IMG/VR virus record: IMGVR_UViG_3300047552_001889
Span: 1-64,000 of that record
Source of the DNA: a virus
Taxonomy: Duplodnaviria > Heunggongvirae > Uroviricota > Caudoviricetes
Strand: one strand, 5' to 3'
Length of the DNA stretch: 64,000 bases
Shown here: piece by piece, positions 2,066 through 60,537 of the stretch
Layout: every line of letters starts with the position of its first letter
Numbering within the stretch: the stretch's first letter is position 1
Notes under the pieces: generated by a model
What the model saw: the letters and a program-made list of their open reading frames with translations, nothing else
Told to the model about the DNA's origin: nothing
The model's database searches: none
Position numbers and translations under genes: made by a program

Positions 2066-2908
2066 ATGGCAAAATTTGAAATTAAGAAAGGTATTCAGTC
2101 TGCGTTAAGTAATAGTGGTAAACCACTTCTTGATGTGCGCTTTCTTGGTATAGGAGGGGCTTTCGATACTGAAGAAGGAACTGCCAGTGTTTTGTTTAAG
2201 ACAAGGGGTGGTAAGTTCTTCCTGATTGACTGTGGATATACTGCATATTCTAAGCTTAGAAAATGGAACCAAGTTGATGTAATCGACAGAGTTTTTATCA
2301 CACACACTCATGAGGACCATATAAATGGATTGTCAACACTTGTTTATGAGCGATTCTTTGTTCACAATCAGAAGACAATTATTGAGTGTCATGATACTGT
2401 AGCCCCAAGGGTTAAGCAATACCTTGATATTTGTGGACATCCAGAAGAACAATACGAAATAAGAATTGGAAACGTCTTCATCGAAGACGAGAGTATAAGC
2501 ATTACCAAGATTGACACTACAAGCAATCATTGGCCAGTTAACAACTTTCCAAACTCAGCCCTTCTATTTCACTTCAGTGTTGGTGATGATTATGCGGTTG
2601 TAATCTACAGCGGAGACATCAATGTGCCAATCACTAATTTGATGCCAGTTGAACTTTATCCATTTGTATATGAGAAGCCTGATAATGTATTCATCTTCCA
2701 TGATATGACATCTTTGGTTCATCATCAAAACCCTCACACAAACTGGAGACTATTAGTTCCTATTAAGGAAATATTTAATAACCTGTTCACATATCATCAT
2801 AATGAAAATCAAGTTGCCATAATTAACCAGGAAAATCCTATTATGGCATCTACATCACTTATAATTAATGGTGAAAATTTTGTGATTGAAGAAAATAAGG
2901 GGATATGA
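2066..2908 (+). CDS. metallo-beta-lactamase fold hydrolase, RNase Z (ElaC)-like
   Basis: LGIGGAF..ASVLFKT..FLIDCGYTAY..VFITHTHEDHINGL matches the RNase Z/MBL HxHxDH zinc motif and its N-terminal glycine-rich region. Confidence 0.55.
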   Translation: MAKFEIKKGIQSALSNSGKPLLDVRFLGIGGAFDTEEGTASVLFKTRGGKFFLIDCGYTAYSKLRKWNQVDVIDRVFITHTHEDHINGLSTLVYERFFVHNQKTIIECHDTVAPRVKQYLDICGHPEEQYEIRIGNVFIEDESISITKIDTTSNHWPVNNFPNSALLFHFSVGDDYAVVIYSGDINVPITNLMPVELYPFVYEKPDNVFIFHDMTSLVHHQNPHTNWRLLVPIKEIFNNLFTYHHNENQVAIINQENPIMASTSLIINGENFVIEENKGI

Positions 2909-3177
2909 TAGAAGGTTTACAGCATCAGCAGAATATGAATTCCGAGATGGAGAAGTACATCAATGAAATGCAAGCAGAGCAGTCAAAATTTAACTTTGTT
3001 ACCATTGGATTCAATGTTGATATGAGAGAGGCTGAGAAGAGGTACATGGAAGAGTGGAAAAACGATATAGGTGGAGTTAAGACAGCTCAGATGACTTTCA
3101 GTCAATGGCTGGATGGAAAGAAGTATGAGGCAACTAAGTTTTACATTAAGCATAGTGATTTTTATTTAGGATTTTAA
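2905..3177 (+). CDS. hypothetical protein
   Basis: ORF with ATGA overlap with the upstream gene. Confidence 0.3.
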   Translation: MIEGLQHQQNMNSEMEKYINEMQAEQSKFNFVTIGFNVDMREAEKRYMEEWKNDIGGVKTAQMTFSQWLDGKKYEATKFYIKHSDFYLGF

Positions 3178-3179
3178 AC

Positions 3180-3449
3180 ATGGAACTAAAATTATTTTTT
3201 TCTGAACAAGAAATTATATCATTCTTAGAAAGGAGTGGATACACAGTTGAAGATGTAGATACTTGGGAGAATGAGAGTTCATATCATAATAAAGTTGAAA
3301 CTGTTTCTTATAAGGTCAAGATAGCCTTCAAGTCAAAGGATGAAATTGATGGGGACCTCCTTCTTAGAGATAAGTACTGGATAGAATCAAAAATAGGTAT
3401 TAATACTGTCTTCAGGAGTTTGATTAAAGAAAAAATTTTAAATTTGTAA
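3180..3449 (+). CDS. hypothetical protein
   Basis: ORF tightly packed in the operon. Confidence 0.3.
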   Translation: MELKLFFSEQEIISFLERSGYTVEDVDTWENESSYHNKVETVSYKVKIAFKSKDEIDGDLLLRDKYWIESKIGINTVFRSLIKEKILNL

Positions 3450-3450
3450 T

Positions 3451-4002
3451 ATGAGTGAGCAAAAGAGAATATCAGAGTGGCTGACAACAGCTGGAGTGGA
3501 AAGTCCAAAAACTCCACAATTCCCCGCAAGTGATAAATTACAACTTGCGCTTGGATTGGTACTTGAAGAATTGTTAGAAGCTGCTGAATCAGCTTCAGAT
3601 GAAGACGCAAATAAATTCTTTGATGAGGTTATTCGAGCGGCTACCATGGCTAAGTTTAACATGGTTGGTAGAAACAGAAATGAAGGTGACTTAACTGAAC
3701 TTAGAGATGCTTGTGCAGACCTAAGAGTGGTTATGGGTAATCTCATTCACTTCGCTGGAATACAAGAGCAATTTGAAGAAGACTTTGCTGAGGTCATGGA
3801 TTCAAATTTCTCTAAGTTCTGCTCAACAGAGCAAGATGCTATGTACTCTGTAGAAGCGTATGCTAAGGGAACTCACCCAAATAAGATGGGTGAAGTAATC
3901 GAGTGTTACTATGAGAAGGTTGGAAACTACTGGATTGTTAAGAGAAAATCAGACAACAAGGTTCTTAAGTCTATTGGATTTAAGGAGCCAAATTTTAAAT
4001 AA
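3451..4002 (+). CDS. hypothetical protein, possible MazG-like all-alpha NTP pyrophosphohydrolase
   Basis: Acidic helices LVLEELLEAAE and DACADLRVVMGNLIHFAG give a weak resemblance to the MazG EExxE / DxxxD core. Confidence 0.3.
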   Translation: MSEQKRISEWLTTAGVESPKTPQFPASDKLQLALGLVLEELLEAAESASDEDANKFFDEVIRAATMAKFNMVGRNRNEGDLTELRDACADLRVVMGNLIHFAGIQEQFEEDFAEVMDSNFSKFCSTEQDAMYSVEAYAKGTHPNKMGEVIECYYEKVGNYWIVKRKSDNKVLKSIGFKEPNFK

Positions 4003-4018
4003 AAAAAGAGAACAAAAA

Positions 4019-4735
4019 ATGGAAAACTTAAAGAAAGATTTTGAACTTTTCGCAAGAGACAAGGGAATTTCAAGCTTGACGCTTGATGGTTATTCTAAAA
4101 TTATAAACCATAATGTGTTTATGCCGCAGTCAATAGCGCAAACTCCTTTCGCTATGACACCAAACATCATCGAAGAGAGACAGTTGAACGCTATTGCGAT
4201 GGATGTCTTTTCAAGATTGATGATGGACAGAATCATCTTCCTTGGAACTGGAATTGATGACACTGTTGCAAACGTAATCAACGCTCAGCTATTATTCCTT
4301 GAGTCTGTAGATGCTAAGAAAGACATCACGATATACTTTAACTCTCCAGGAGGAAGTGTTTACGCTGGACTTGGTATTTATGATGTTATGCAGTATGTTA
4401 AGCCAGATATTGTAACTGTTAACACGGGTATCGCAGCTTCGATGGCATATGTGCTGGCTTGTGCTGGAGAAAAGGGTAAGAGATATTCTTTGCCTCATGC
4501 AAGATACATGCAGCATCAACCTCTTGGTGGAGCTTCAGGTCAGGCTTCTGACATTGAAATTACAGCTAAGGAGATTCAAAAGCTTAAAAAAGAGCTCTAT
4601 GAGATAATCTCACTTCACACAGGTCAACCATATGATAAAATTTGGAGTGACTGTGATAGAGACCACTGGATGACAGCTAGAGAGGCAAAAGAATACGGTT
4701 GTATAGACCACATTCTTAAGGGGGCTAAGAAATAA
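4019..4735 (+). CDS. clpP: ATP-dependent Clp protease proteolytic subunit ClpP
   Basis: FNSPGGSVYAGLGIYDVM..GIAASMAYVLACAG..MQHQPLGG are canonical ClpP Ser/His/Asp-region motifs. The ATG at 4019 is chosen over the track's 3911 start, which would overlap the previous gene by 90 nt. Confidence 0.85.
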   Translation: MENLKKDFELFARDKGISSLTLDGYSKIINHNVFMPQSIAQTPFAMTPNIIEERQLNAIAMDVFSRLMMDRIIFLGTGIDDTVANVINAQLLFLESVDAKKDITIYFNSPGGSVYAGLGIYDVMQYVKPDIVTVNTGIAASMAYVLACAGEKGKRYSLPHARYMQHQPLGGASGQASDIEITAKEIQKLKKELYEIISLHTGQPYDKIWSDCDRDHWMTAREAKEYGCIDHILKGAKK

Positions 4736-10800: not shown

Positions 10801-11034
10801 ATGTATAGAGAAGACTACGATGACTACGATGGGGTTGTAACCATTGACGAGTTAAATAAGATGGTTGACCAAGAATATGAAAGCATGTCTGAAACTGAAA
10901 AGCATATCAGATTGGTTCAATGTGACCCGACTTACCTGCAGTATACTCTAAGCCTAGCATCAAACATAATTAAGAGCAATCCTGAAGCTAAGTTTTTAAT
11001 CAATGAATATACCTATAAATTTGAGGTCTTGTAA
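10801..11034 (+). CDS. hypothetical acidic protein
   Basis: ORF with start-ATGA coupling. Confidence 0.3.
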   Translation: MYREDYDDYDGVVTIDELNKMVDQEYESMSETEKHIRLVQCDPTYLQYTLSLASNIIKSNPEAKFLINEYTYKFEVL

Positions 11035-11439: not shown

Positions 11440-11472
11440 AAAAAGGAGGCTTAAACAGCCTCCTTTTCTTTT
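11440..11472. terminator. bidirectional rho-independent terminator between convergent genes
   Basis: AAAAAA-GGAGGCT-taaac-AGCCTCC-TTTTCTTTT; overlaps the clpB stop codon. Confidence 0.7.
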
Positions 11473-13673
11473 GTCTCAACATTATTGAATTCCAGTTGCT
11501 CTCCGTTAACTGTAACCTCTATTGTTGAATTATTTACCACCTTTCCAGAAAGTATATCCTTAGAGAGCTTTGTTAATAGCTCATCATGAATCATTCGCTT
11601 GACTGGTCTTGCTCCATATTGAGGCTCATAGCTCATTTCTGTCATCTTGGAGAATGCATCTTCACTAGCTATCAGATTTACTCCGCTTCTTGAGAGTTTC
11701 TTTTGAAGCCCTCTAAATTGAAGCTTGACAATTTCTCGTATGTTATCTCTGTTAAGATAATCAAATACGATTGTCTTGTCGATTCTGTTGATGAATTCTG
11801 GTCTTAGCTTAGCCTTAATTAGTTCGATAGCATACTCTCCAGCTTTCTTCATGATTTCTGCAGGAGTTCCAAATTCATCTGGCTCTCCAGTCTTTTCAAT
11901 ATTCTCAATTCTTTGAATTCCTGAGATTAAGGATTCGGAACCCATGTTAGATGTCATGATGATTATTGTGTTCTTGAAGTCAGCAACTCGCCCCTTATTA
12001 TCAGTTAGCCTACCATCATCAAGAACCTGCAGCAATAAATTTAGAACATCTGGGTGTGCTTTCTCAATCTCATCTAATAGGATTACACTGTATGGCTTTC
12101 TTCTTGCCGCCTCTGTAAGCTGGCCGCCTTCCTCATATCCAACATATCCTGGAGGAGCTCCGACCATTCTTGAAGCAGAGTGCTTCTCTTGGTATTCACT
12201 CATATCAATTCTTGTGACCATTGACTCATCATTAAACAAGTACTCAGCTAAGGCCTTTGCAAGTTCTGTCTTACCGACACCAGTTGTTCCAAGAAACAAG
12301 AATGAACCGATTGGTCTATTTTCACTCCCAAGGCCAGCACGATTGATTCTGATTGCATCTGAAATTACAGTAACTGCTTCAACCTGTCCAATGATTCTAT
12401 TGTGTAGCTCATCCTCAAGCGTTAAAAGTTTATCCATATCGCTTTGGGTCATCTTAGACACTGGAATTCCAGTCATCTTTGCAATAACCTCAGCGATGTC
12501 ATCAGCGTGAACTTCCTCTTGCATCATTCGAGAGTTAGAGGCCTCAAGTTCACGTAGCTTCGCAAAAGCTTCCTCAACTTGTTTTTCTGCTTGTGGTAAT
12601 TCATTGTATTGAATTTCATAGAGCTGCTTAAAGTCTTCATTATCCTTGTCTGCCTTAGAGACAAAATTCTGGAACTTATGTTTTAAGGCTTCAACTCTTT
12701 TTTTTGCCTGACTAGCACCGTCAATGATTGCTTTCTCAGCCTGCCATCTGGCATTTATCTCATCTGCCTCTTTTTTCTTGACCTTGATTTCAGCTTCTAC
12801 CTCTTTGATTTTTACCACATTCTTCTCACGCTTCATGGCTTGCAGCTCAATCTCAAGTTGAATGATTTTTCTATTCATGTCATCAACTTCATCTGGAACA
12901 GAGTTTAATTCCATTCTAAGCTTGGAGCAAGCCTCATCCATAAGGTCAATTGCCTTATCTGGAAGACATCTGTCTGTAATGTATCTGTTGGATAGTTCCG
13001 CAGCAGCAATTAGCGCATCATCCTTAATCGTAACTCTGTGGTGAACTTCAAACTTCTCCTTGATGCCTCTTAGGATGGTAATTGCCTCATCAACTCCAGG
13101 TTCATCAACAAATACTCTTTGGAATCTTCTAACAAGTGCCTTATCACTCTCAAAGTGTTTTTGATACTCGTCAAGAGTTGTAGCTCCAATCGTTCTTAAT
13201 TCACCTCTTGCAAGAGCTGGTTTTAAGATATTAGCAGCATCCATTGCCCCTTGACCACCACCAGCTCCAACCAAGATATGAATCTCATCAATAAATAGGA
13301 CAACCCTCCCAGCTGATGCAATTACTTCTTCCACAACTCCCTTAAGCCTCTCTTCGAACTCACCCTTATATGAAGCGCCAGCAATTAGAGCTGTAAAGTC
13401 AAGTTCATATATTTCGATGTCCTTAAGATTTTCTGGAATATCACCTCTAACTATTCTCTGGGCGATACCCTCAACAATAGCTGTCTTACCAACACCTGGT
13501 TCACCAACGATGATTGGATTATTTTTTGTCCTTCTTGAGATTATTTGAAGAACTCGCCTAATCTCATCCTCACGGCCTATAATTGGGTCGATTCGACCAT
13601 TCTTAGCTTTTGCTGTTAGGTTGACTGCAAATTTATCTAAGTTTCTTATTCCAGGCTCTTGCTGTTCATTCAT
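11451..13673 (-). CDS. clpB: ClpB-like AAA+ chaperone (two AAA domains, coiled-coil M-domain, no N-domain)
   Basis: Two Walker A sites (GEPGVGKTAIVEG and GTTGVGKTELAKALA), sensor/arginine-finger regions, and a ~130-aa coiled-coil between the AAA modules. It begins directly before AAA-1. Confidence 0.8.
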   Translation of the reverse strand: MNEQQEPGIRNLDKFAVNLTAKAKNGRIDPIIGREDEIRRVLQIISRRTKNNPIIVGEPGVGKTAIVEGIAQRIVRGDIPENLKDIEIYELDFTALIAGASYKGEFEERLKGVVEEVIASAGRVVLFIDEIHILVGAGGGQGAMDAANILKPALARGELRTIGATTLDEYQKHFESDKALVRRFQRVFVDEPGVDEAITILRGIKEKFEVHHRVTIKDDALIAAAELSNRYITDRCLPDKAIDLMDEACSKLRMELNSVPDEVDDMNRKIIQLEIELQAMKREKNVVKIKEVEAEIKVKKKEADEINARWQAEKAIIDGASQAKKRVEALKHKFQNFVSKADKDNEDFKQLYEIQYNELPQAEKQVEEAFAKLRELEASNSRMMQEEVHADDIAEVIAKMTGIPVSKMTQSDMDKLLTLEDELHNRIIGQVEAVTVISDAIRINRAGLGSENRPIGSFLFLGTTGVGKTELAKALAEYLFNDESMVTRIDMSEYQEKHSASRMVGAPPGYVGYEEGGQLTEAARRKPYSVILLDEIEKAHPDVLNLLLQVLDDGRLTDNKGRVADFKNTIIIMTSNMGSESLISGIQRIENIEKTGEPDEFGTPAEIMKKAGEYAIELIKAKLRPEFINRIDKTIVFDYLNRDNIREIVKLQFRGLQKKLSRSGVNLIASEDAFSKMTEMSYEPQYGARPVKRMIHDELLTKLSKDILSGKVVNNSTIEVTVNGEQLEFNNVETKEKEAV

Positions 13674-16172: not shown

Positions 16173-17162
16173 ATGGAATTTGAAAACTTAGGAGACTGGT
16201 GTAAATGGCTTGAGAAGAATTTCTCACCAGAAGTCATGATTCCAACTCTACCTGTAATCATTCGACTTGACGGAAATAATTTCCACAATTGGACAAAGGG
16301 CTTGCGTAGACCATTTGACAAGAAGCTGACACAGCTTATGGTTGAAACAACAAAGTTCTTGGTTGAGGAAACAAACGCTGTAATCGGGTACACTCAAAGT
16401 GATGAGATTACGCTCATCCTTTACTCTCCAGATAGAAAGAGTGCAATTTACAATGATGGAAAGAAACAAAAAATTCTATCAAAGTTGCCAGCGAAGTGTG
16501 TAAATTTCTTCAATGATAGAAGAAAGGAGCTTCTTCCAAATCACAACAAGAACGCAGTATTTGATGCTAGAATCTATCAGACTCCAACACTTCACGATGC
16601 TGCAATCCAGTTGCTTTGGAGGGAAAATGATGCCACAAAGAATAGTATTTCAATGTTGGCTCAAAGCTTGTTTTCTCACTCAGAGCTTCAAAATTTGAAT
16701 GGAGGCCAAATGCAAGATAAGATGATGCTTGAAAAAGGCATAAACTGGAATGAGCTTGAAACTCAGTACAAGCGTGGAACTTATGTCAAGAGGGTTAGAA
16801 CATCAAGGCCATTCACTGCAGAAGAGCTTGCAAGCTTGCCTCCAAAGCATAATGCTCATAGAAATCCTGACCTGGTTATTGAACGTAACGTAATTCAGGA
16901 AATTGAGCTTCCAATATTCAGTACGATTGAGAATAAGGCTGGTGTCGTTTTCTTTGATGAGGAACCAGTTAAAAGATATGATACTGAAGCTGGCGTAAGA
17001 CCTAGTGAGTCTCAAATTTACGCTGAGATGATTCTTAGGAAATTCATTCAAGAAGCTGGTTTTGTTGATTTCACAAAGGAGTTTGGAATTACAGGTTGGA
17101 AAGAGCTTGACAAGTGGATTAAAACTAATATACACAAAATTAAGGAGCATGAAGAAGTTTAA
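16173..17162 (+). CDS. Thg1-like tRNA(His) guanylyltransferase / 3'-5' tRNA repair polymerase
   Basis: PVIIRLDGNNFHNWTKG..IGYTQSDEITLIL matches the Thg1/TLP catalytic core (RxDGRxFHxFT...SDE). Confidence 0.65.
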   Translation: MEFENLGDWCKWLEKNFSPEVMIPTLPVIIRLDGNNFHNWTKGLRRPFDKKLTQLMVETTKFLVEETNAVIGYTQSDEITLILYSPDRKSAIYNDGKKQKILSKLPAKCVNFFNDRRKELLPNHNKNAVFDARIYQTPTLHDAAIQLLWRENDATKNSISMLAQSLFSHSELQNLNGGQMQDKMMLEKGINWNELETQYKRGTYVKRVRTSRPFTAEELASLPPKHNAHRNPDLVIERNVIQEIELPIFSTIENKAGVVFFDEEPVKRYDTEAGVRPSESQIYAEMILRKFIQEAGFVDFTKEFGITGWKELDKWIKTNIHKIKEHEEV

Positions 17163-22861: not shown

Positions 22862-23767
22862 TTATCTGTATTCGATAAGTCTCATTTTTCGACTTCGCCC
22901 TTTCAATCTTCTGATTGCTTGTTCCTTGATTTGTCTCACTCTCTCTCTTGTCAATTCAAATCTAAGTCCTATTTCTTCAAGACTCATTTGTGGATTTCCA
23001 AACAGACCAAAATAATAAATTAGAACATCCTGCTCTCTCTGCTTAAGAGTGCTGATTACTCGTTTCATTTCTACTTGTAGGTCCTTGCCATCCATTAAGT
23101 GATTTGCTTCAAATTCAGAATGACCTGGAAGCACATCAATGAGCGAGCCAGCTTCGTTATCAGTGGTCATCGGTGCATCAAGTGATGCTACCTTTGATGA
23201 GCTCATTAATAATTCAGCTAACTTATCTTCTTTGAACTTAGTGGCATCTCCTCTTGAGCCTTTATCATATTCCTTAGAAGTAAGGTACTCAGAAATTTCA
23301 TCAATGCTTGGTTGTCTCTCCAGTACTTGCTCAAGGTCTGATACAGCTTGCTTGACTTTATTGACAGTGCCAATTTTATTTAGAGGCAATCTCACCATTC
23401 TTCCATGCTCAGCTAAATACTGCATAATAGCTTGACGAATCCACCAAACAGCATAGGAAATGAACTTAAAACCCTTAGTTTCATCAAACTTCTCTGCAGC
23501 CTTGATTAGACCAATGTTTCCCTCATTAACAAGGTCTGGAAGTGGTGCATGTCCGTTGTATTGTTTGGCAACACTAATCACGAATCTTAAGTTAGCCTTG
23601 CACAGCTTATTTCTGGCTTGAATATCACCTTGCTTGATTCTCTTTGTAAGTTCAATTTCCTCCTCTGCTGTGATAATATCACCGATGCTACCAACCTCGG
23701 TTAGATACTTGTTAAAGGAAATGTCTTCACGATTCGTAATTTGTTTGGTAATTTTTAATTGCCTCAT
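22862..23767 (-). CDS. sigma-70 family RNA polymerase sigma factor (RpoD/RpoS-like, regions 2-4)
   Basis: Region 2 DLVNEGNIGLIKAAEKFDETKGFKFISYAVWWIRQAI, and region 4.2 helix-turn-helix LEEIGLRFELTRERVRQIKEQAIRRLK. Confidence 0.8.
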   Translation of the reverse strand: MRQLKITKQITNREDISFNKYLTEVGSIGDIITAEEEIELTKRIKQGDIQARNKLCKANLRFVISVAKQYNGHAPLPDLVNEGNIGLIKAAEKFDETKGFKFISYAVWWIRQAIMQYLAEHGRMVRLPLNKIGTVNKVKQAVSDLEQVLERQPSIDEISEYLTSKEYDKGSRGDATKFKEDKLAELLMSSSKVASLDAPMTTDNEAGSLIDVLPGHSEFEANHLMDGKDLQVEMKRVISTLKQREQDVLIYYFGLFGNPQMSLEEIGLRFELTRERVRQIKEQAIRRLKGRSRKMRLIEYR

Positions 23768-23807
23768 GGATTAATTTATTAGTTGTTGTTTTTATTTAGT
23801 CACACGG

Positions 23808-23836
23808 TTTATACGCAGAAATTCAAAAAATGTTTA
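23808..23836 (-). promoter_or_regulatory. phage promoter TAAACA-N17-TATAAA upstream of sigma factor gene
   Basis: Minus strand reads taaaca-ttttttgaatttctgcg-tataaa. Confidence 0.45.
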
Positions 23837-23880
23837 ATAAAAATGAAAAAAGTTTTTAACATCTTGAAACTTTATGAAAA

Positions 23881-23918
23881 TAAAAAACCTCCAGTTACTG
23901 TGCTTCTCTGGAGGTTTT
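23881..23918 (-). terminator. terminator of tmRNA gene
   Basis: On the minus strand, CCTCCAG-n13-CTGGAGG is followed by TTTTTTA. The element is palindromic, with an A-run flanking it on the plus strand. Confidence 0.6.
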
Positions 23919-24231
23919 GTTAGACTGTTCTGCCGATTAGGCAGCAGCGAACTCAATGATGTCCGCAGAAGTCTCTTTCATGCTTGCGTTTGCCATAGCA
24001 GCAGCCGCAAGGCTTTTGATTGTATTTTTGTCATTTCTGACCTGTAAACGTATCCCATGGCCCTGTCTAATCATTTCATCCCCAAGTTTTAACTCTACCC
24101 CGTAAGTAGAGAGCACGATGTACGGCCTCGTGAAGCCAGTGCATTCACCCTTAGGGTGAAGCTTAGTGGAGATGGAGGGTAGCGAGCCCTCGTCCAGCTG
24201 CAAAGATTGCACATTTAAGTGCTGCTTACAT
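23881..24231 (-). ncRNA. ssrA: circularly permuted two-piece tmRNA (ssrA) precursor: acceptor piece, intervening segment, then coding piece with tag ORF
   Basis: The minus strand reads GGAC-GAGGG-CUCGCUA-CCCUC-CAUCUCC-A (T-arm plus 3' acceptor strand, 24191-24167). Compare E. coli GGAC-GCGGG-UUCAACU-CCCGC-CAGCUCC-A. About 83 nt downstream lies GGGGAUG-AAAU-GAUUAGACAGGG (24083-), which compares with GGGGCUG-AUUCUG-GAUUCGACGGG. This gives a 7-bp acceptor stem with a G3-U70 wobble. A tag frame follows: GCA AAC GCA AGC AUG AAA GAG ACU UCU GCG GAC AUC AUU GAG UUC GCU GCU GCC UAA, encoding ANASMKETSADIIEFAAA, with the stop at 23937-23939. The gene has its own consensus promoter and a terminator. 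Confidence 0.6.
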
Positions 24232-24237
24232 ATTTTA

Positions 24238-24266
24238 AATATACGAAAAAAAACAATATATGTTAC
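24238..24266 (-). promoter_or_regulatory. phage promoter GTAACA-N17-TATATT driving tmRNA
   Basis: Minus strand reads gtaaca-tatattgtttttttttcg-tatatt. The predicted transcription start is near 24231. Confidence 0.55.
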
Positions 24267-24280
24267 AAAATTTTTAAAAA

Positions 24281-24802
24281 TTATTTCCAAAATTTTGAAA
24301 TAGCTTTACAAAGCTCAACTGTTTCTTCGTGTGATAGATTATTTTTCATCATATTAATATTTCTACTTATAAATTGGACATTACCCTCAATGTACCCTTT
24401 ACTACTGTCAATTCTATCTAAAGATGCTGTATACATAGAATTGCTTTTAGGTTTATAATCCCAATCTTTTAATTTAATTCCAGTATATGGACAAATTCCA
24501 TTTTGCTTATCCCACACTTCTTTTAAATATAAAAGTGTTAGATTATTTTCTTGATTTCTATAAGTAGATTGTCTTAAATGATATTTGAATGGAGATAACT
24601 CATCTTTTAAAGAACCAGAACGATTCAAATATTTAGTATTGCCTATATTTTCTTCTGGTATATTTTTAATATTACCCCTTCCAGAGCAGCTTAAAGAGCA
24701 ATAAGTCTTTCTTCCTTTTTTTAAATTTCTTCTATGCTCCTTCTCTTCTCTTTCGAATTTTTTATCACAAATTTCACAATTTAATATAACCTTTTTACTC
24801 AT
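24281..24802 (-). CDS. HNH endonuclease (homing-endonuclease-like)
   Basis: N-terminal CxxC...CxxC zinc ribbon; the C-terminal SLDRIDSSKGYIEGNVQFISRNINMMKNN matches the HNH motif (D/H-N...N). Confidence 0.6.
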   Translation of the reverse strand: MSKKVILNCEICDKKFEREEKEHRRNLKKGRKTYCSLSCSGRGNIKNIPEENIGNTKYLNRSGSLKDELSPFKYHLRQSTYRNQENNLTLLYLKEVWDKQNGICPYTGIKLKDWDYKPKSNSMYTASLDRIDSSKGYIEGNVQFISRNINMMKNNLSHEETVELCKAISKFWK

Positions 24803-32802: not shown

Positions 32803-34755
32803 ATGACAAAAGAACAAAAAGAAGGAATTATTGAATTATCCAGAAATGGAAATGCCTATGTAAGATTTGGAAGTGCTGAGTCTGAAGAGCGAATATTTGT
32901 ACATAAGAAAAACATCAACCGAGCGCTTGATGGCGACAAGGTGTCATTTACAATTACCTCTCAAAGTGGTGAATACAAGGAAGCAAAAGTAGATGGAATC
33001 GTAGAGAGGGTCAGAATTGACTTCTCTGGTGTTATTGAAATCAATAAGGAAAAGGGGCATGCATTTGTAAGAACATCTGGTGGAAGTATGCCAGTTGACT
33101 TTTATGTTCCAATAGAAAATATAAAGGATGCCAATAATGGTGATGTTGTGGTTGTTCGACTACTCCGTTGGTATAAGAAAGAAAAAAGCCCTACTGGGAT
33201 TGTTGTAAAAGTGCTTGGAAAGGCGAATACACATGAAACTGAGATGGGCTCTATCATGTTCAAGCATGGTATTGACTATTCTTTCCCTGAAGAGGTTGAA
33301 AAGGAAGCAAATGCAATTCCAATTGAGATTCCTGAGTCTGAAATTCTAAAGCGTAGGGATATGCGTGATGTCCTTACAATTACGATTGACCCAGAGACAG
33401 CGAAGGATTTTGATGATGCTATATCGTTTCAGAGACTGGAAAATGGTAACTACGAAGTAGGTGTTCATATTGCAGATGTGGCTCACTACATAAAGCCAGG
33501 AAGTGCTCTTGACAAAGAAGCATTTGCTAGGGCAACATCAGTTTACTTAGTGGACCGATGCATACCGATGCTTCCAGAAAGATTGTCAAATGGAATTTGC
33601 TCGCTAAGGCCAAATGAGGATAAACTTACTTTCTCTGTAATTTTTGAGATTTCGAAAGATGGTGAGATTCAGAAACATAGCTTCAAGAAGACTGTGATTA
33701 ATTCTGATGTAAGACTTACATATGAGCAAGCTCAGGAAATAATTGAATCAGGTAGTAGAGCTCATGAAATACCATTTATGGCAACAAGTTCATGGACTGC
33801 TAAGCATGCGAATGAAGATAAAGCTGTTTTGATTCTTAATGACTTGGCAAAAAAAATTAGAGCGCAGAGATTTAAGGATGGAGCTGTTAGCTTCAATAGA
33901 AGAGAACCACACTTTGTTCTTGATGAGGCTGGAGCTCCTGTGGATGTTTTCTTTCATGAGTCAGAGGATTCTCACCAGCTTATTGAAGAGTTCATGCTTC
34001 TTGCAAACAGATATGTAGCTACATTTGCTCATAAGAAGTCTGTTCCATTTGTATACAGAACACACGACCTTCCAAGTCAAGAGAAGCTTCAAGAACTAAG
34101 CTTGTTTGTTAAGCAATTCGGATATACATTCAATACATCTGGAAGCATTAGTCAAACTAAGGCATCTCTTAATGAAATGCTTAAGCAGGCTCAGGGTAGT
34201 GGTGAAGAGGCTATGATTTCTACATTGGCAATTCGCTCTATGTCGAAGGCTATTTATTCAACACAGATAATTGGTCACTATGGTCTTGGATTCAAGCACT
34301 ACAGTCACTTTACAAGTCCGATTAGAAGGTATCCAGACTTGATTGCTCATAGACTTCTTTGGAGTCTTCTTCAGAATAAGACTGGAGATGTTTCAAAGCT
34401 TAACTCGCAATGTGAACACTGCAGCGAAATGGAAAATAGAGCTGCAAAGGCACAAAGAGAGTCAATCAAGTACAAACAATGTGAGTACTTGAAGAACAAG
34501 ATTGGTGAGCAGTTCAAGGGAATCATCACAAGTGTTCCAGATTTTGGAGTCTTTGTTGAAATCATTGAGAACGGATGTGAGGGTATGATAAGCAAAGAAA
34601 ATCTTGAGAGAAATACTTTGTTTATAGACCCAGAAAACTTTTGCGTTAACAACTTGAAGAATGGTGAAACATACAGGCTTGGAGATGAGGTAACAGTGGA
34701 GGTGCTAAAGGTGAATATGCAAAGGAAACAAATTGACTTTAAAATAATTATCTAA
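32803..34755 (+). CDS. rnr: RNase R / RNase II family 3'-5' exoribonuclease (RNB domain with C-terminal S1 domain)
   Basis: RNB catalytic motifs (DPETAKDFDDAISF and HYGLGFKHYSHFTSPIRRYPDLIAHRLL) and a C-terminal S1 fold (GEQFKGIITSVPDFGVFVEI). Confidence 0.85.
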   Translation: MTKEQKEGIIELSRNGNAYVRFGSAESEERIFVHKKNINRALDGDKVSFTITSQSGEYKEAKVDGIVERVRIDFSGVIEINKEKGHAFVRTSGGSMPVDFYVPIENIKDANNGDVVVVRLLRWYKKEKSPTGIVVKVLGKANTHETEMGSIMFKHGIDYSFPEEVEKEANAIPIEIPESEILKRRDMRDVLTITIDPETAKDFDDAISFQRLENGNYEVGVHIADVAHYIKPGSALDKEAFARATSVYLVDRCIPMLPERLSNGICSLRPNEDKLTFSVIFEISKDGEIQKHSFKKTVINSDVRLTYEQAQEIIESGSRAHEIPFMATSSWTAKHANEDKAVLILNDLAKKIRAQRFKDGAVSFNRREPHFVLDEAGAPVDVFFHESEDSHQLIEEFMLLANRYVATFAHKKSVPFVYRTHDLPSQEKLQELSLFVKQFGYTFNTSGSISQTKASLNEMLKQAQGSGEEAMISTLAIRSMSKAIYSTQIIGHYGLGFKHYSHFTSPIRRYPDLIAHRLLWSLLQNKTGDVSKLNSQCEHCSEMENRAAKAQRESIKYKQCEYLKNKIGEQFKGIITSVPDFGVFVEIIENGCEGMISKENLERNTLFIDPENFCVNNLKNGETYRLGDEVTVEVLKVNMQRKQIDFKIII

Positions 34756-36600: not shown

Positions 36601-37668
36601 ATGACACAAGTAAAGAAAATAATTAAGTACCCAAGCACTGAGCAATTCAGAACCATTGTTAAGACCGTTAACGAGCGCACCGCATTCGTTGGTCTTGATG
36701 AGAATGGTAAGGCAATGTACGACCCATCAATCAAGAAGCCAGTTCTTAAGTTCAAGGGAACTGTTAAGATTCATGGAACCAACGCTGGTGTTTCTTACAA
36801 CAATTCTCATGGAATGTGGGCTCAGTCTAAGGATAATATCATTACTCCAGAGAAGGATAACTATGGGTTTGCGTTCTTTGCACACTCAAATGAATTCTTC
36901 TTTGTTCAAGCTCTTTCTGAGTTCGCTAAGAAGCATAATATTGACCTTGATGAGAACACAATCACTGTTTACGGTGAGTGGGCTGGAGAGTCTATTCAAA
37001 AAGGAATGGGAATCTCCAATATCCCAAAGTCTTTGTTTGTTTTTGGTGTTAAGGTTTCAAGGCCAGGAGATGAGGACTTCCAGTCATTCTGGATTGATGC
37101 CTCAGATTTCCCAGTAGATGAAGATAGAAGAATCTTCAATATTCATGACTTTGAGACATACGAAATTGAGGTTGACTTCAATAGGCCAGATGTTGCTCAA
37201 AATCAGATGATTGAGATTATGACTCAGGTTGAGAACGAGTGTCCTGTTGCTAAGGCTTTCGGTCACGTTGGAATTGGAGAGGGTAATGTTTGGACTGTTG
37301 AATTCAAGGGTCATACATACAGATTCAAGGTTAAGGGCGAGAAGCACGCTGGAAAGACAAAGGTTAAGACTTTGAAGGCTGTTGACAGCGACAAAATCAA
37401 TAAGATTCATGAGGTTGCTAATAAGGTAACTCCTGCGTGGCGATTAGACCAGATGTTAACTCAGGCTTGTAATATTGGTAACGGTGGAAACATTGATAGA
37501 GCAAAGCTTGGTGATTACTTGAGACTTGTTATTAACGATGTCATCAAGGAAGAGTCTGACATTATCGCTGAAGCTGGTCTTGAGCCGAAGGATGTAAATA
37601 AGTATGTTTCTCAAATTGCCAGAGAATACTTCTTCGACAGAGAGAAGGAAGACCTTGGTGTTAACTAA
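36601..37668 (+). CDS. RNA ligase, Rnl2 family
   Basis: Motif I KIHGTNAG matches T4 Rnl2 KIHGTN (ligase lysine), and YGEWAGESIQKG matches T4 Rnl2 FGEFAGPGIQK (motifs III/IV). Confidence 0.7.
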   Translation: MTQVKKIIKYPSTEQFRTIVKTVNERTAFVGLDENGKAMYDPSIKKPVLKFKGTVKIHGTNAGVSYNNSHGMWAQSKDNIITPEKDNYGFAFFAHSNEFFFVQALSEFAKKHNIDLDENTITVYGEWAGESIQKGMGISNIPKSLFVFGVKVSRPGDEDFQSFWIDASDFPVDEDRRIFNIHDFETYEIEVDFNRPDVAQNQMIEIMTQVENECPVAKAFGHVGIGEGNVWTVEFKGHTYRFKVKGEKHAGKTKVKTLKAVDSDKINKIHEVANKVTPAWRLDQMLTQACNIGNGGNIDRAKLGDYLRLVINDVIKEESDIIAEAGLEPKDVNKYVSQIAREYFFDREKEDLGVN

Positions 37669-41632: not shown

Positions 41633-43393
41633 ATGATAGAGACAATTAAAACAGAGTGGGACCTGGAGAAGCATTACTTCTCCTCAATCGAGGATTCAAG
41701 AATTAAAGAAGGAATTGATGCAGATAGTAAGCAGCTTGATGAATTCATAGCAAAATATGAGGGAAAAATAGCCTCTCTATCAGATGAGGATTTTCTTCAG
41801 TTTCTTGAAGAGTCTGACTCACTAAATCAGAATATGCTGAAGGCTCACTACTACTTCTCTTACCTCAATACGCTTAACACACAGGACCAAGATGTTCTTA
41901 AGAAAATGGGTGAATTGCACAATCTTTGGGCCGAGAACTCATCAAAAACACTCTTTATAACTGAAGAACTTAAGGAAGTAGGGTATGATAAGCTAATGGA
42001 TAGAAGTGGTCTTGAATCTTATGCTCCTATTAAGAATTACATCATTGGTCTTGCAAATGACTTGAAATATACACTTTCAAAGCCAGAAGAGAAGGTATCT
42101 ATCGAAATGGGTAAAGTTACCTCAATCTTGGGTGATATTTACACGGAGCTAACAAACTCATTCGAGTTTGAAATTAATGGTGAGAATAAAACTAAGTCTC
42201 AGGTTTATGCAGACCGAATGTCGAAAGATGAAGAATTAAGAAAAGAATCTCACAAGGCTCTGCATGAGAAATATGGAGAACACCAGATTGTTCTAGGAAA
42301 CATCTATAAGTCAGTGTGTAAGGGTAATGTATGTGGAATTAAGTTAAGAGGCTATGAGGGTGTAATGCACACCAGAAACCTATCTGAAGAAATGGATGAA
42401 GAGGTGGTTGACAAGCTACTTGAGATGGTGAAGTCAAACTATCACCTGTTTCACAAACACCTAAAGAATAAGGCTAAGATGCTTGGTAAGGATAAGGTTG
42501 AGTTCCATGACTTCTTGGCACCAATTCCAGTTGAAAATCTGGATGACGAAATGACTTTTGAGGAAGGTTATGAATTGTACATGAATTGTGTAAAGAAGTT
42601 TGATGAAGACTTCTACAATTACTCAAAAGAGATTTTCGAAGATGGAAGAGTATCCGTATTCCCATCTAAGGGCAAGATGGGTGGAGCATATGCTTCATAC
42701 AATAAGAATAAGGATTCTTTTGTGATGCTTAATCACACGCCAGACTTTCAGTCAGTTATGACATTGGCTCATGAGCTTGGTCACGCAATCCACGGGTGGC
42801 TATCACAGGTTCAGCCATACTCTGTATACCATTCTCCGCTTTCACTGGCTGAAACAGCCAGCATCTTTAATGAAACTTTTGTATTTGAAGAAATCATGAA
42901 GAATATTGGTGATAATGAGAGAAATTATTTCATCATGAAAAACTTGGACGATATTTTCTCTACAATGTTCCGTCAGGTTATGTACGTTGACTTCGAGAGA
43001 GAATGTCACCAGAGAACACTTGATGGCGAGGAGTTGTCTTATGATGACTTCAACGAGATTTGGTTTAGAAAGAGTCAGGAGTACTACGGACCAGACATGG
43101 AGCTTCCAGAATACGTTAAGTATGGTTGGAGCATCATTCCTCACATCTTCCATACGAAGTTCTACTGCTATGCATACAGCTTCGGAAACATCCTAAGCTT
43201 CAACTTATACCAGATGTACAAGGATTCTGAGAACAAGGAGGAGTTTGTTGAGATGTACAAGAATATCTTGAGAGCTGGTGGCTCCAAGAGACCTAAGGAC
43301 CTGCTTGCTGACAATGGTATAGACATAACTTCAAGCGAATTTTACAATGGTGCATTTGCTGTTGTTGAGGGACTTATAAAAATGGTTGAATAA
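41633..43393 (+). CDS. pepF: oligoendopeptidase F (M3 family metallopeptidase)
   Basis: HELGHAIHG zinc HExxH motif in a ~590-aa protein with M3B-like architecture. Confidence 0.75.
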   Translation: MIETIKTEWDLEKHYFSSIEDSRIKEGIDADSKQLDEFIAKYEGKIASLSDEDFLQFLEESDSLNQNMLKAHYYFSYLNTLNTQDQDVLKKMGELHNLWAENSSKTLFITEELKEVGYDKLMDRSGLESYAPIKNYIIGLANDLKYTLSKPEEKVSIEMGKVTSILGDIYTELTNSFEFEINGENKTKSQVYADRMSKDEELRKESHKALHEKYGEHQIVLGNIYKSVCKGNVCGIKLRGYEGVMHTRNLSEEMDEEVVDKLLEMVKSNYHLFHKHLKNKAKMLGKDKVEFHDFLAPIPVENLDDEMTFEEGYELYMNCVKKFDEDFYNYSKEIFEDGRVSVFPSKGKMGGAYASYNKNKDSFVMLNHTPDFQSVMTLAHELGHAIHGWLSQVQPYSVYHSPLSLAETASIFNETFVFEEIMKNIGDNERNYFIMKNLDDIFSTMFRQVMYVDFERECHQRTLDGEELSYDDFNEIWFRKSQEYYGPDMELPEYVKYGWSIIPHIFHTKFYCYAYSFGNILSFNLYQMYKDSENKEEFVEMYKNILRAGGSKRPKDLLADNGIDITSSEFYNGAFAVVEGLIKMVE

Positions 43394-60273: not shown

Positions 60274-60537
60274 ATGAATAAGGCAGTTACACTAGATAAG
60301 TTCTTTGAATCAAGCTACCCAGATGGACATTACGCTGTTTGGAAGACTGGGAAAATTTTAAACCCTAGCCAAGATGGGTTTCTATACGGATTCTCAGGTG
60401 CGGTTGTTGAATATAATAACTGTGAAGGATTCAAGGATTATCCAGAATGGATGGATAACACTGATGACCAGCAAATAAATATTGTTCTATTGAGCGAGAT
60501 TCCAATGGCACATGAATTATCTACTGGAGAATTTTAA
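60274..60537 (+). CDS. hypothetical protein
   Basis: ORF only. Confidence 0.3.
   Translation: MNKAVTLDKFFESSYPDGHYAVWKTGKILNPSQDGFLYGFSGAVVEYNNCEGFKDYPEWMDNTDDQQINIVLLSEIPMAHELSTGEF

Follow-up and report, generated by a model that had tools for sequence, protein, structure and literature searches.

Elements of the locus

The window analysed here is a stretch of 64,000 nucleotides of a Caudoviricetes genome (IMG/VR record IMGVR_UViG_3300047552_001889, positions 1 to 64,000), and the locus described below lies on its minus strand. In the direction of transcription, the T-arm and the 3′ acceptor strand of a tRNA-like domain stand upstream of the 5′ acceptor strand and of a tag frame, which is the permuted ssrA order that an earlier note had read from this DNA, and all clade members have the same order. 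Every element listed in that note for a two-piece tmRNA was confirmed at its coordinates. tmRNA is the RNA that rescues stalled ribosomes.

The locus opens with a phage promoter-like motif, AACA-N-CGTATA (AACATATATTGTTTTTTTTCGTATA; 24240..24264), which immediately precedes the predicted 5′ end of the precursor. The earlier note had placed a consensus promoter at 24266-24238; the sigma-70-type match found there (GTAACA-17-TATATT, 9/12) is at chance level, with three such sites found against 2.4 expected, but it overlaps the enriched phage motif AACA-N13-17-CGTATA, which has 13 occurrences in the window where 0.46 would be expected, is conserved in the relatives and also lies upstream of the sigma gene (23834-23810) and of smpB (52590-52614).

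The acceptor piece begins with a 5′ leader (24192..24230), delimited by the two-strand fold and by the minimum free energy (MFE) fold of the whole precursor. It holds the 5′ strands of a helix, P2 (24230-24224, 24207-24203, 24201-24200 and 24197-24195; two-strand fold, MFE fold and Rfam alignment), and a small internal hairpin (24222-24219 / 24212-24209) predicted by folding. The T-arm (24175..24191) has the stem GAGGG/CCCUC (24191-24187 / 24179-24175) and the loop CUCGCUA, and is followed by the 3′ acceptor strand CAUCUCC (24174-24168) and the discriminator A (24167), so that the bases between 24191 and 24167 are those given in the earlier note. The intervening segment, estimated there at about 83 nt, is exactly 83 nt long (24084..24166), forms several hairpins in the MFE fold and is predicted to be excised.

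The coding piece would start at the 5′ acceptor strand GGGGAUG (24077..24083), the predicted product end of RNase P, which pairs with CAUCUCC over the 7 bp originally proposed, including the G3:U70 wobble. Next come a D-loop analogue, AAAUGAUUAGA (24066..24076), placed by the Rfam alignment and the relatives and lacking the usual GG, and the 3′ strands of P2 (24065-24063, 24061-24060, 24056-24052 and 24049-24043, within 24043..24065), which are supported by the folds and by the Rfam alignment. A small hairpin found with RNAalifold, GUCA-GAAA-UGAC (24030..24041), holds the likely resume codon in its 3′ strand and leads into the tag frame (GAC...GCC UAA, 23937..24032), which encodes the 31 amino acids DKNTIKSLAAAAMANASMKETSADIIEFAAA before its stop and lacks a start codon. 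The coding piece ends at an intrinsic terminator (23882..23918), identified from an 11-bp stem, its covariation and a U-run. The hairpin reported earlier at 23914-23888 is present, with a stem of 23914-23908 / 23894-23888, and covariation widens it to 23918-23882; a consensus scan did not detect it because its loop is 13 nt long.

The space around the tag is small. A 12-nt hairpin alone lies between P2 and the tag, where pseudoknot PK1 normally sits, and the terminator follows the stop codon after only 18 nt, so that there is no room for the PK1 and PK2 of cellular tmRNAs. We found no pseudoknot partner for the conserved terminator loop that was consistent across members.

Detection and conservation of the RNA structure

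Detection by the standard tools, which the earlier note had put forward as a check, gave a divided answer. ARAGORN reported no tmRNA in the window. In the Rfam search, the permuted tmRNA family RF04321 matched the locus end to end with 38.3 bits (E 5.3e-6 for the 901 nt searched), below its gathering score of 47 bits, and no family reached its gathering score in the window. The betaproteobacterial two-piece model RF01850 aligned with the tRNA-like domain alone, over model positions 80-163, at 26.5 bits against a threshold of 84, and gave no full-length match including its clade-specific helices and pseudoknots. Neither the alphaproteobacterial RF01849 nor the cyanobacterial RF01851 was among the Rfam matches at E ≤10, in a search that discards lower-scoring overlapping matches of the same clan and could thus hide an alpha or cyanobacterial match weaker than that of RF01850.

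Two features of the window copy account for the ARAGORN miss, since its T-loop and its D-loop analogue are both non-canonical. The loop CUCGCUA deviates from UUCRANY in lacking the canonical U54 and A58, and when a canonical T-loop and a D-loop GG were introduced together in silico the call was restored. None of the single changes did so (C54U, C58A, a canonical T-loop, an encoded CCA, repair of the P2 mismatch or a D-loop GG). The same loop type is common to the relatives L201, L204 and L209 (T-loops UUCGCUA in the first two and CUCAUUA in the third), and the seven other members are canonical; within the clade, D-loops without GG co-occur with non-canonical T-loops.

The same gene is present in 11 related phage contigs, ten of which were fetched by means of the neighbouring sigma gene. 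All of these ten match RF04321, with scores of 24.6-52.7 bits; L199 exceeds the gathering score at 52.7 bits, with L196 (46.4) and L198 (46.2) next to it. ARAGORN calls a permuted tmRNA in four relatives (L001/L203, L196, L197 and L198). Across the relatives, 98.9% of the cells in the helices are paired, compared with 42-58% in slid controls, and both partners change in 12 of the 27 pairs. None of 500 shuffles matched the observed values on four of five covariation measures; the fifth, the count of further pair types, was the same as in the shuffles (310/500). The compensatory changes anticipated for related phages were found, in the T stem, the acceptor stem, the resume hairpin and the terminator, and the two pieces are complementary in the relatives as well. 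Four of the five T-stem pairs show double compensatory changes and six terminator pairs show double changes, with 100% of cells paired in both stems, and the acceptor stem has one compensatory pair change, U-A to C-G, in L201 and L204. Both G3:U70 and the discriminator A are invariant in the ten aligned sequences. When the 348-nt transcript was folded, its MFE structure contained the T-arm, the acceptor stem and the connecting helix, with z = -3.7 against shuffles. Taken with the Rfam match and the compensatory changes, this makes the arrangement more than a chance one.

Helix P2, which links the acceptor-piece leader to the coding piece, forms in every clade member, with sequences specific to each class. 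The architecture seen in the window recurs in L201, L204 and L209, where GCG/CGC becomes GUG/CAC, a single double change from C-G to U-A, and the further changes within this class are wobble-compatible. Duplex energies, compared between cognate and non-cognate strands to look for covariation in P2, did not discriminate between them, since one G-rich tail pairs well with every P2 leader. In the window, P2 has one A.G mismatch in the Rfam alignment and is the weakest of the clade, and for this reason the function of the window copy could be impaired. The intervening segment ranges from 18 to 83 nt in the relatives and is 96-98% identical in L196, L197 and L198; no copy suggestive of a mobile element was found beyond these three among the sequences compared, and the segment had no Rfam match. 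CCA is not encoded, the discriminator A being followed by CUA (ACUA), as is also the case for CCA in 30 of the 87 permuted-order tmRNA loci that we found, nearly all of them in IMG/VR scans.

A blastn search of 50,697 phage records with the locus as query gave no match. The pattern GGGGATGAAN{2,5}ATTAGAC had 44 matches in IMG/VR, mostly due to chance, the others being the known relative L175 and three permuted tmRNAs outside the clade (L160, L179 and L180). The pattern GTCAGAAATGRCAAAA, with at least 120 matches, was too unspecific, and two permuted tmRNAs were among them, the clade member L310 and the unrelated L248. A metagenome scan for the D-loop type of the window retrieved two contigs. 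Among 185,579 species-representative genomes there were 21 pattern matches, of which one was a real clade member, in a misbinned contig; the clade is essentially absent from such genomes.

The tag frame and the alternatives to a tagging RNA

The tag frame is open in all relatives, with a length of 29-31 amino acids, and in every member the spacing that separates it from the 5′ acceptor strand and P2 upstream is short and fixed. Differences in the tag are distributed over the codon positions as 493/478/829, a third-position excess; 388 codon differences are synonymous, and the members use both AGC and TCT for Ser. These substitutions show the frame to be under constraint at the amino-acid level. 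The earlier note had the frame and its UAA (23939-23937) right, but its start at GCA (ANASM...) is not likely, and its alternative resume codon, GCG at 24008, is disfavoured as well, because amino-acid conservation begins upstream of both, at D/G-K-N-T. GAC at 24032-24030 is thus the likely resume codon. The first tag codon begins with G in all members and an A at position -4 is invariant, which fits the -6 to +1 rule of resume-codon selection (PMC3985003); the stop-codon argument permits any in-frame resume codon from about -5 to +1. The hairpin around this codon is kept through sequence changes (UCCA/UGGA in L197, GUCAUU/AAUGGC in L203), and the element is also present in the unrelated viral permuted tmRNA L248. 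A resume codon inside a hairpin is unusual. We also considered an AUG-initiated frame inside AAAUGAC and rejected it, as it is unconserved and has only four codons in L199.

Given the deviant T-loop, the deviant D-loop and the mismatched P2 of the window copy, the RNA could be a tmRNA derivative that binds SmpB or ribosomes and does not tag. It would then interfere with host trans-translation, as a decoy or an inhibitor, or provide rescue only, similar to the form of mycobacteriophage DS6A, which is tRNA-like and devoid of a CDS; inhibition of host tmRNA by a phage form without a CDS has been described (PMC11915505). We regard such an RNA as unlikely, since the open tag frame and its amino-acid constraint extend to every member, the alanine identity pair and the discriminator A are invariant, and the retention of the deviant loop type in L201, L204 and L209 argues against decay.

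The protein-level conservation of a 29-31-aa frame, with an in-frame AUG at codon 13 in the window, could also be expected of an ordinary short gene that encodes a peptide of some 20-30 amino acids and lies beside an unrelated tRNA-like structure. However, no start codon is conserved in the tag, L199 and L200 are without AUG, GUG or UUG in the early frame, the spacing from the 5′ acceptor strand and P2 is fixed, and the tRNA-like parts covary with the frame in all members, all of which makes such a gene very improbable. No more credible is a remnant of the 3′ end of a host tmRNA carried as a phage attachment site: a T-arm plus the CAUCUCCA pattern is very common in viral contigs and many integrative elements target ssrA (PMC11915505), but here the permuted order continues through the 5′ acceptor strand, P2, the tag and the terminator, all of which covary, a promoter motif of its own precedes the gene, the species-representative genomes yielded the clade only in the one misbinned contig, and no integrase was seen among the subset of window proteins that was scanned.

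The least tenable reading, which we can practically dismiss, is a protein gene corresponding to the 117-aa ORF with a TTG start at 23937..24290, since this ORF, open in the window and with a 78-codon open stretch in L197, has no family match, is interrupted in 9 of 11 relatives by an in-frame stop 5-15 codons upstream of the tag, spans an intervening segment that varies from 18 to 83 nt regardless of frame, and is uncalled by gene finders in public records. The earlier note had the RNA gene currently hidden under this ORF: the ORF is present and is judged not to be a gene, as claimed, but it is absent from the available gene calls, and neither the public calls for the relatives nor the short Logan contig L206, which encodes a sigma protein identical to that of the window, have a gene call over the tmRNA interval.

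A phage two-piece tmRNA gene and its possible partners

With these alternatives weighed, we conclude that the locus is in all likelihood the circularly permuted ssrA gene of a large phage, specifying a two-piece tmRNA that would be charged with alanine, bound by SmpB and active in tagging; the core of the earlier reading, a permuted phage tmRNA and a spurious ORF, is supported. A precursor of about 350 nt would be transcribed from the phage-specific promoter, whose motif is observed, and cut into two RNAs by host tRNA-processing enzymes, with an RNase P cut at G24083 and RNase Z-type or exonucleolytic trimming after A24167, as predicted from the maturation of known two-piece tmRNAs. The resulting acceptor piece of about 65 nt, to which CCA would be added post-transcriptionally as it is not encoded, and coding piece of about 200 nt would be held together by the 7-bp acceptor stem and P2, in a tRNA-like domain with the alanine identity pair G3:U70. 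After charging with alanine and binding by the phage's own SmpB, the RNA could enter stalled ribosomes, where translation would switch to the internal frame, probably at GAC 24032-24030, and the nascent chain would gain Ala and a 31-residue peptide. The tag ends in FAAA, and this non-polar C-terminus could act as a degradation signal.

The protein partner is encoded in the same window. The smpB gene (52622..53080, plus strand) is supported by PF01668 (180 bits) and NF003843 (183.6 bits against a cut-off of 130), and is preceded by the AACA-N13-17-CGTATA motif that it has in common with the tmRNA and sigma genes. SmpB relatives co-occur with the tmRNA gene across the clade, on contigs judged from their matching lengths to be the same as those of the sigma relatives. 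The window SmpB has 50-52% sequence identity with the SmpBs of 636-735-kb phages, and 46-50% with those of Lak phages. An RNase R gene (32803..34755, plus strand; TIGR02063 at 694.5 bits against a cut-off of 597.85, with RNB, CSD2 and S1 domains) may serve the same pathway by degrading non-stop mRNA, by analogy with the RNase R-tmRNA link known for bacteria. A ClpP subunit that is extended by about 80 aa at its N-terminus (3911..4735, plus strand; PF00574 at 251.8 bits, NF001368 at 277.3 against a cut-off of 249) might degrade the tagged proteins. The window yielded no ClpX or ClpA partner for it. A 740-aa AAA+ protein was considered for this role; it is ClpB-like, its N domain is absent, and it is not to be assumed to feed ClpP.

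The gene shares its order (acceptor piece, intervening segment, coding piece) with the two-piece tmRNAs of Betaproteobacteria and with RF04321, and its tRNA-like domain, CUGGACGAGGG...CCCUCCAUCUCCA ... GGGGAUGAAAUGAUUAGACAG, is nearly collinear with their consensus, CUGGACgggGG...cccCAccUCCA ... GGGggUGuaCUGGUUUCGACAG; both have G3:U70, P2 and a tag frame without a start codon. In cellular two-piece tmRNAs the tag is typically flanked by PK1 and PK2 (PMC3985003), whereas the window gene has space for neither, and its tag is 31 aa long as opposed to about 10-14 aa, its T-loop and D-loop are non-canonical and CCA is unencoded. The standard one-piece bacterial tmRNA (RF00023) also has a tRNA-like domain with G3:U70, works with SmpB and carries an internal tag frame whose C-terminus is non-polar and rich in Ala; it is the form of nearly all Bacteroidota, with 24,380 standard and 48 permuted tmRNAs in their assemblies (PMC11915505), and the window gene differs from it in its permuted order, its lack of pseudoknots and its mature RNA in two pieces, as predicted.

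The earlier note considered a permuted tmRNA together with smpB unusual for a phage. Both genes are indeed present, but the rarity was overstated in view of published cases and of the 87 permuted loci. Two-piece forms make up 53 of 133 unique phage tmRNAs, among them those of the OM43 phage Melnitz, pelagimyophages and cyanophages (PMC9004378). These and the permuted loci that we found are, like the window gene, phage-borne permuted ssrA genes under a phage promoter; the latter have intervening segments of 16-162 nt and often lack an encoded CCA, as in the window. On RF04321, the other permuted loci sampled reach 55-147 bits, compared with 25-53 bits for the window clade, and the beta model is passed by 7 of 15 of them. 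ARAGORN calls most of them and they have short tags such as ANDETFALAA, in contrast to the 29-31 aa of the window clade, which, unlike them, is linked to a Bacteroidota-like sigma factor. The tmRNA of Melnitz has a glutamine riboswitch, and the Rfam search found none at this locus. Huge phages with tmRNA and SmpB have been published (Al-Shayeb et al. 2020, PMC7162821), with tmRNAs that were found by ARAGORN and whose form was not described; such phages, Lak megaphages included, have their own SmpB, tRNAs and other translation-related genes, as does the large phage of the window. The 245-290-kb IMG/VR contigs examined carry standard one-piece tmRNAs with 24-aa tags, while the window gene is permuted. 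Phage two-piece tmRNAs are thus a known kind, and what is new here is a divergent, stripped-down member, distinguished by the lack of room for pseudoknots, the long tag, the non-canonical T-loop and D-loop and a probable Bacteroidota host.

A broader reading, which we put forward only tentatively, is that the clade represents a distinct pseudoknot-free two-piece tmRNA lineage, confined to large phages with Bacteroidota as their probable hosts, bacteria that themselves have a one-piece tmRNA. The conserved tag of about 30 aa (D/G-K-N-T-I-K-S-L-A...) might then be more than a generic degron and address chains to phage machinery such as ClpP; the tmRNA, the phage SmpB and the sigma factor, expressed together under a single promoter class, would amount to a phage-controlled trans-translation module, and misbinned contigs could lie behind some permuted tmRNAs of 'archaeal' MAGs, of which PMC11915505 has 19.

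For annotation, a real RNA gene was missed here by two standard detectors, ARAGORN and the Rfam gathering score. Members of the clade fall on both sides of the Rfam threshold, so that a model built for the clade would recover the gene. Misbinned phage contigs offer an explanation for some of the tmRNAs and SmpB genes recorded under archaeal MAGs. The window represents a compact phage ribosome-rescue set of tmRNA, SmpB, RNase R and ClpP, with the last two possibly acting in the same pathway. A naturally minimised tmRNA, with no pseudoknots, a resume hairpin and a tag of about 30 aa, could serve as a model of what a tmRNA minimally needs, and such a small tmRNA could help in asking why phages carry their own copy.

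The permuted locus and its recognition by search models

Direct inspection of the minus strand recovered every element of the permuted tmRNA gene that the earlier note had proposed: the T stem GAGGG/CCCUC with loop CUCGCUA (24191-24187 and 24179-24175), the 3′ acceptor strand CAUCUCC (24174-24168), the discriminator A (24167), an 83-nt intervening segment (24166-24084), the 5′ acceptor strand GGGGAUG (24083-24077), the UAA stop of the tag frame (23939-23937) and a terminator made of a hairpin and a U-run (23918-23882). Minimum-free-energy folding of the 348-nt transcript gives the T-arm, the acceptor stem and the connecting helix (z = -3.7), and the stretch matched by RF04321 (tmRNA_permuted) has 49% G+C, versus about 36% for the window.

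ARAGORN called no tmRNA in the window, its sole output being two tRNAs, and an Rfam scan of the window left the locus below the gathering score in every family. A permissive search of 23600-24500 did yield a full-length RF04321 match (38.3 bits, E 5.3e-6), but under that family's gathering score of 47 bits, and RF01850 (beta_tmRNA) aligned to the tRNA-like domain with 26.5 bits. Among contigs carrying relatives of the gene, ARAGORN called permuted tmRNAs in L001/L203, L196, L197 and L198, and RF04321 gave 24.6-52.7 bits across the ten linked to a sigma-factor gene, L199 exceeding the threshold and L196 and L198 reaching 46.4 and 46.2 bits. The window's copy is thus assigned to the family because it is homologous to copies that do pass.

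Altering the window's sequence in silico, we found that ARAGORN recovers the gene once a canonical T-loop and the GG of the D-loop analogue are introduced together; the T-loop alone, the GG alone, an encoded CCA or P2 repair (the helix joining the acceptor-piece leader to the coding piece) gave no call. T-loops off canon occur as UUCGCUA (L201, L204), CUCGCUA (window) and CUCAUUA (L209), all with D-loops lacking GG, while canonical T-loops in other members of the clade (the window's tmRNA and its relatives) are accompanied by it. Judged from these sequences, the two loops seem to have changed together, altering the elbow contact, rather than to have decayed.

Relatives, covariation and reduced architecture

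Ten contigs were obtained through relatives of the sigma factor (62-79% identity), and all ten have the same arrangement upstream of sigma, as has the IMG/VR contig L001; pattern scans added L208/L209, L310 and L344. Only one of 21 pattern matches in 185,579 species-representative genomes was a true member, on a 2.6-kb MAG contig; the clade is nearly absent from them. L344 is a 2.6-kb contig of a 'Deltaproteobacteria bacterium' MAG, and the clade's sigma factor and SmpB (P0014, P0132) are filed under an NCBI 'Nanoarchaeota archaeon' MAG on a 99,492-bp contig, to which L202, itself carrying a permuted tmRNA, is protein-identical. Of the 19 permuted tmRNAs that PMC11915505 describes from archaeal MAGs, some may stem from phage contigs binned in error.

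The compensatory changes to be sought in relatives are present in both the T stem (GAGGG/CCCUC, UGGGG/CCCCA, GGGGG/CCCCC, GAGGG/CCCUU, GGGGA/UCCCC, GAGAG/CUCUC, AGGAG/CUCCU and GUGGG/CCCAC) and the acceptor stem (CAUCUCC/GGGGAUG and CACCUCC/GGGGGUG). Over four helices (T stem, acceptor stem, a 4-bp hairpin and the terminator) in an alignment of ten clade sequences, 98.9% of helix cells are paired, as against 42-58% when partners are shifted by 1-3 columns, and 12 of the 27 pairs show changes on both sides. The observed values on four of five covariation measures were reached by none of 500 shuffles; the fifth, a count of further pair types, did not differ from them (310/500). The alanine identity pair G3:U70 is U:G in all ten sequences, and unguided RNAalifold returned the same helices.

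P2 is found in every member as a long, interrupted pairing of the 5′ leader with a stretch past the D-loop analogue, its sequence differing among three classes. The window pairs 24230-24224 with 24049-24043, 24207-24203 with 24056-24052, 24201-24200 with 24061-24060 and 24197-24195 with 24065-24063 (minus strand), with one A.G mismatch in the Rfam alignment. The sole element between P2 and the tag is a resume hairpin, GUCA-GAAA-UGAC (24041-24030, minus strand), retained as UCCA/UGGA in L197 and GUCAUU/AAUGGC in L203. Cellular two-piece tmRNAs typically retain PK1 and PK2 (PMC3985003). Since only this 12-nt type of hairpin precedes the tag and 18 nt separate the stop codon from the terminator, the window's tmRNA has a reduced architecture without room for either pseudoknot. 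The terminator loop (23895-23907; L196-L205) keeps the consensus GAAnnAnAGUA while its stem covaries; a pairing partner sought across the clade gave no consistent candidate. An unrelated viral permuted tmRNA (L248, IMGVR_UViG_3300045988_065074, about 2886-3300) has the same resume hairpin, GUCAGAAAUGAC, a tag DKTFVTDYTRIAA and a tRNA-like T-arm directly downstream.

The window's gene is a mosaic. Its intervening segment and tag-to-terminator part (24084-24166 and 23882-24032) share 96-98% identity with L196 and L197, whereas the tRNA-like halves (24167-24230 and 24043-24083) are nearer L201 and L204 (64-84%). The contrast is clearest from the 5′ acceptor to the resume codon (75-78% to L201/L204 versus 44-51% to L196/L197); the leader lies at a similar distance from both (71% to L196, 64-68% to L201/L204). 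This pattern points to reshuffling by recombination within the gene.

The tag frame and the overlapping ORF

The 117-aa ORF (23937-24290, minus strand, TTG start) is present mechanically, but the suspicion that it is spurious is borne out: it has no Pfam match, its frame is interrupted by stops in L001, where the locus lacks any long ORF, and public annotations call no gene across the interval, either in the relatives or in L206 (a short Logan contig whose sigma protein is identical to the window's).

From a conserved GAC, GGC or GGA, the tag frame of every member runs 29-31 codons without interruption, with the nearest in-frame stop 5-15 codons upstream of it in nine of 11 relatives. The tags read DKNTIKSLAAAAMANASMKETSADIIEFAAA in the window, DKNLTKSLALAAISNSERAEVAVMAPVAMAA in L199, GKNTKSLAEAAMSYAAMKEVVSTPVVELA in L203 and DKNTQKALAESACAYASAPETNAVLVAELV in L205. 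Differences by codon position number 493/478/829 across the clade, 388 codon differences are synonymous, and a conserved Ser uses both AGC and TCT; no start codon is conserved in the frame among clade members. This codon-level pattern in an open frame without a conserved start argues that the frame is translated. An AUG frame within AAAUGAC, only 4 codons long in L199, was rejected.

Judging from the upstream stops, translation would have to start no more than about 5 codons from GAC 24032-24030. The likely resume codon begins with G in all members and the A four bases upstream is invariant, which agrees with the known influence of positions -6 to +1 on where translation resumes (PMC3985003). 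The tag first proposed, ANASMKETSADIIEFAAA, was in the correct frame but probably covers just the C-terminal 18 of 31 residues. One-piece tmRNAs of standard type in other IMG/VR contigs (L055, L060, L066, L074, L088, L082, L083 and L085, most 245-290 kb) have 24-aa tags (GNTNFWSLVNESVNAPVTEELLAA; AVELSTMTFEDAMAFVGADYAVAA), and lengthy tags may be a frequent feature of large phages.

Helices, tag frame and passing homologues together support the reading as a permuted tmRNA gene in a phage, and we hold with very high confidence that the locus is a genuine permuted ssrA homologue. The RNA is also quite likely to work as a tagging tmRNA, our confidence being limited by the deviant T-loop and weak P2 of the window's copy.

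Phage context, probable host and known permuted tmRNAs

The window also encodes SmpB (52622-53080; Pfam 180 bits; NCBIfam 183.6 versus a cut-off of 130), nearest to that of 636-735-kb uncultured phages (51-52% identity) and 46-50% identical to that of Prevotella Lak megaphages, together with RNase R (TIGR02063, 694.5 versus 597.85), a RecD2-type helicase and two tRNAs. A phage-encoded proteostasis set lies near the rescue genes: ClpP extended N-terminally by about 80 aa (3911-4735, +), a ClpB-like AAA+ protein without the N domain (11451-13673, -) and an M3 peptidase (41633-43393, +). Genes of tRNA repair or modification encode a Thg1-like protein (16173-17162, +), a 391-aa protein with a partial arginyl-tRNA synthetase-like domain (835-2010, +) and an Rnl2-like RNA ligase (36601-37668, +). 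A 280-aa metallo-beta-lactamase-fold protein (2066-2908, +) weakly matches RNase Z (58.7 bits, cut-off 252) and anti-Pycsar Apyc1, and could be a tRNA/tmRNA 3′-end processing enzyme or an anti-defence nuclease. Elsewhere, the viral contig L047 has two tRNAs with anticodon UUA, reading the UAA stop (3878-3953 and 4375-4448), and L085, a 288-kb viral contig, a tRNA with the four-base anticodon GUGA (4635-4707).

A 173-aa HNH/endonuclease VII-like gene (PHROG 3322, 1035, 3118) adjoins the tmRNA (24281-24802, -; L001 3321-3839, -; L199 2008-2526; L203 2321-2839); varying in position and orientation among relatives and missing in others, it behaves as a mobile homing endonuclease would. A Terminase_6N-like ORF lies between tmRNA and sigma in L201, L204 and L205, joined in L205 by a GIY-YIG ORF.

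The promoter proposed at 24266-24238 is not significant by itself as a sigma-70 consensus match. The window has 13 copies of the motif AACA-N13-17-CGTATA, versus 0.46 expected and at most 3 in 200 simulations, starting at 11033, 15151, 28352, 31428, 52590, 60547 and 62441 (+) and at 60408, 27215, 26211, 24264, 23834 and 13719 (-). Copies stand upstream of smpB (52590-52614) and, on the minus strand, of the tmRNA (24264-24240) and the sigma gene (23834-23810), suggesting that the three share a single class of phage promoter, possibly recognised by the phage's own sigma factor. This 301-aa sigma-70 protein is encoded directly downstream of the tmRNA and has relatives on IMG/VR viral contigs; its nearest named cellular counterparts (52-56% identity) are all from Bacteroidota (Brumimicrobium, Crocinitomicaceae, Fluviicola, Sphingobacteriaceae and Bacteroidales), so the host is probably a member of that phylum. 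Bacteroidota assemblies contain 24,380 standard and 48 permuted tmRNAs (PMC11915505).

The earlier note held a phage permuted tmRNA with smpB to be unusual, yet a two-piece tmRNA is published for phage Melnitz, with 53 of 133 unique phage tmRNA structures two-piece (PMC9004378), as are huge phages with tmRNA and SmpB (PMC7162821). That Alpha- and Betaproteobacteria and Cyanobacteria carry permuted genes is established, and RF04321 merges the models for these three groups (PMC11915505). One T-arm and acceptor-strand pattern matched at least 120 IMG/VR contigs, and 87 collected loci have the permuted order, with CCA encoded in 57 and not in 30 and intervening segments of 16-162 nt. Other permuted loci sampled score 55-147 bits with RF04321, seven of 15 pass the beta model, and most receive short tags from ARAGORN. 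The beta type is closest to the window's tRNA-like domain; the clade differs from other permuted loci in its low model scores, absence of pseudoknots, tag length (about 30 aa), linkage to a Bacteroidota-like sigma factor and, in one class, deviant elbow. Given the published phage two-piece tmRNAs and the loci surveyed here, we regard the window's gene as a divergent representative of a kind already known.
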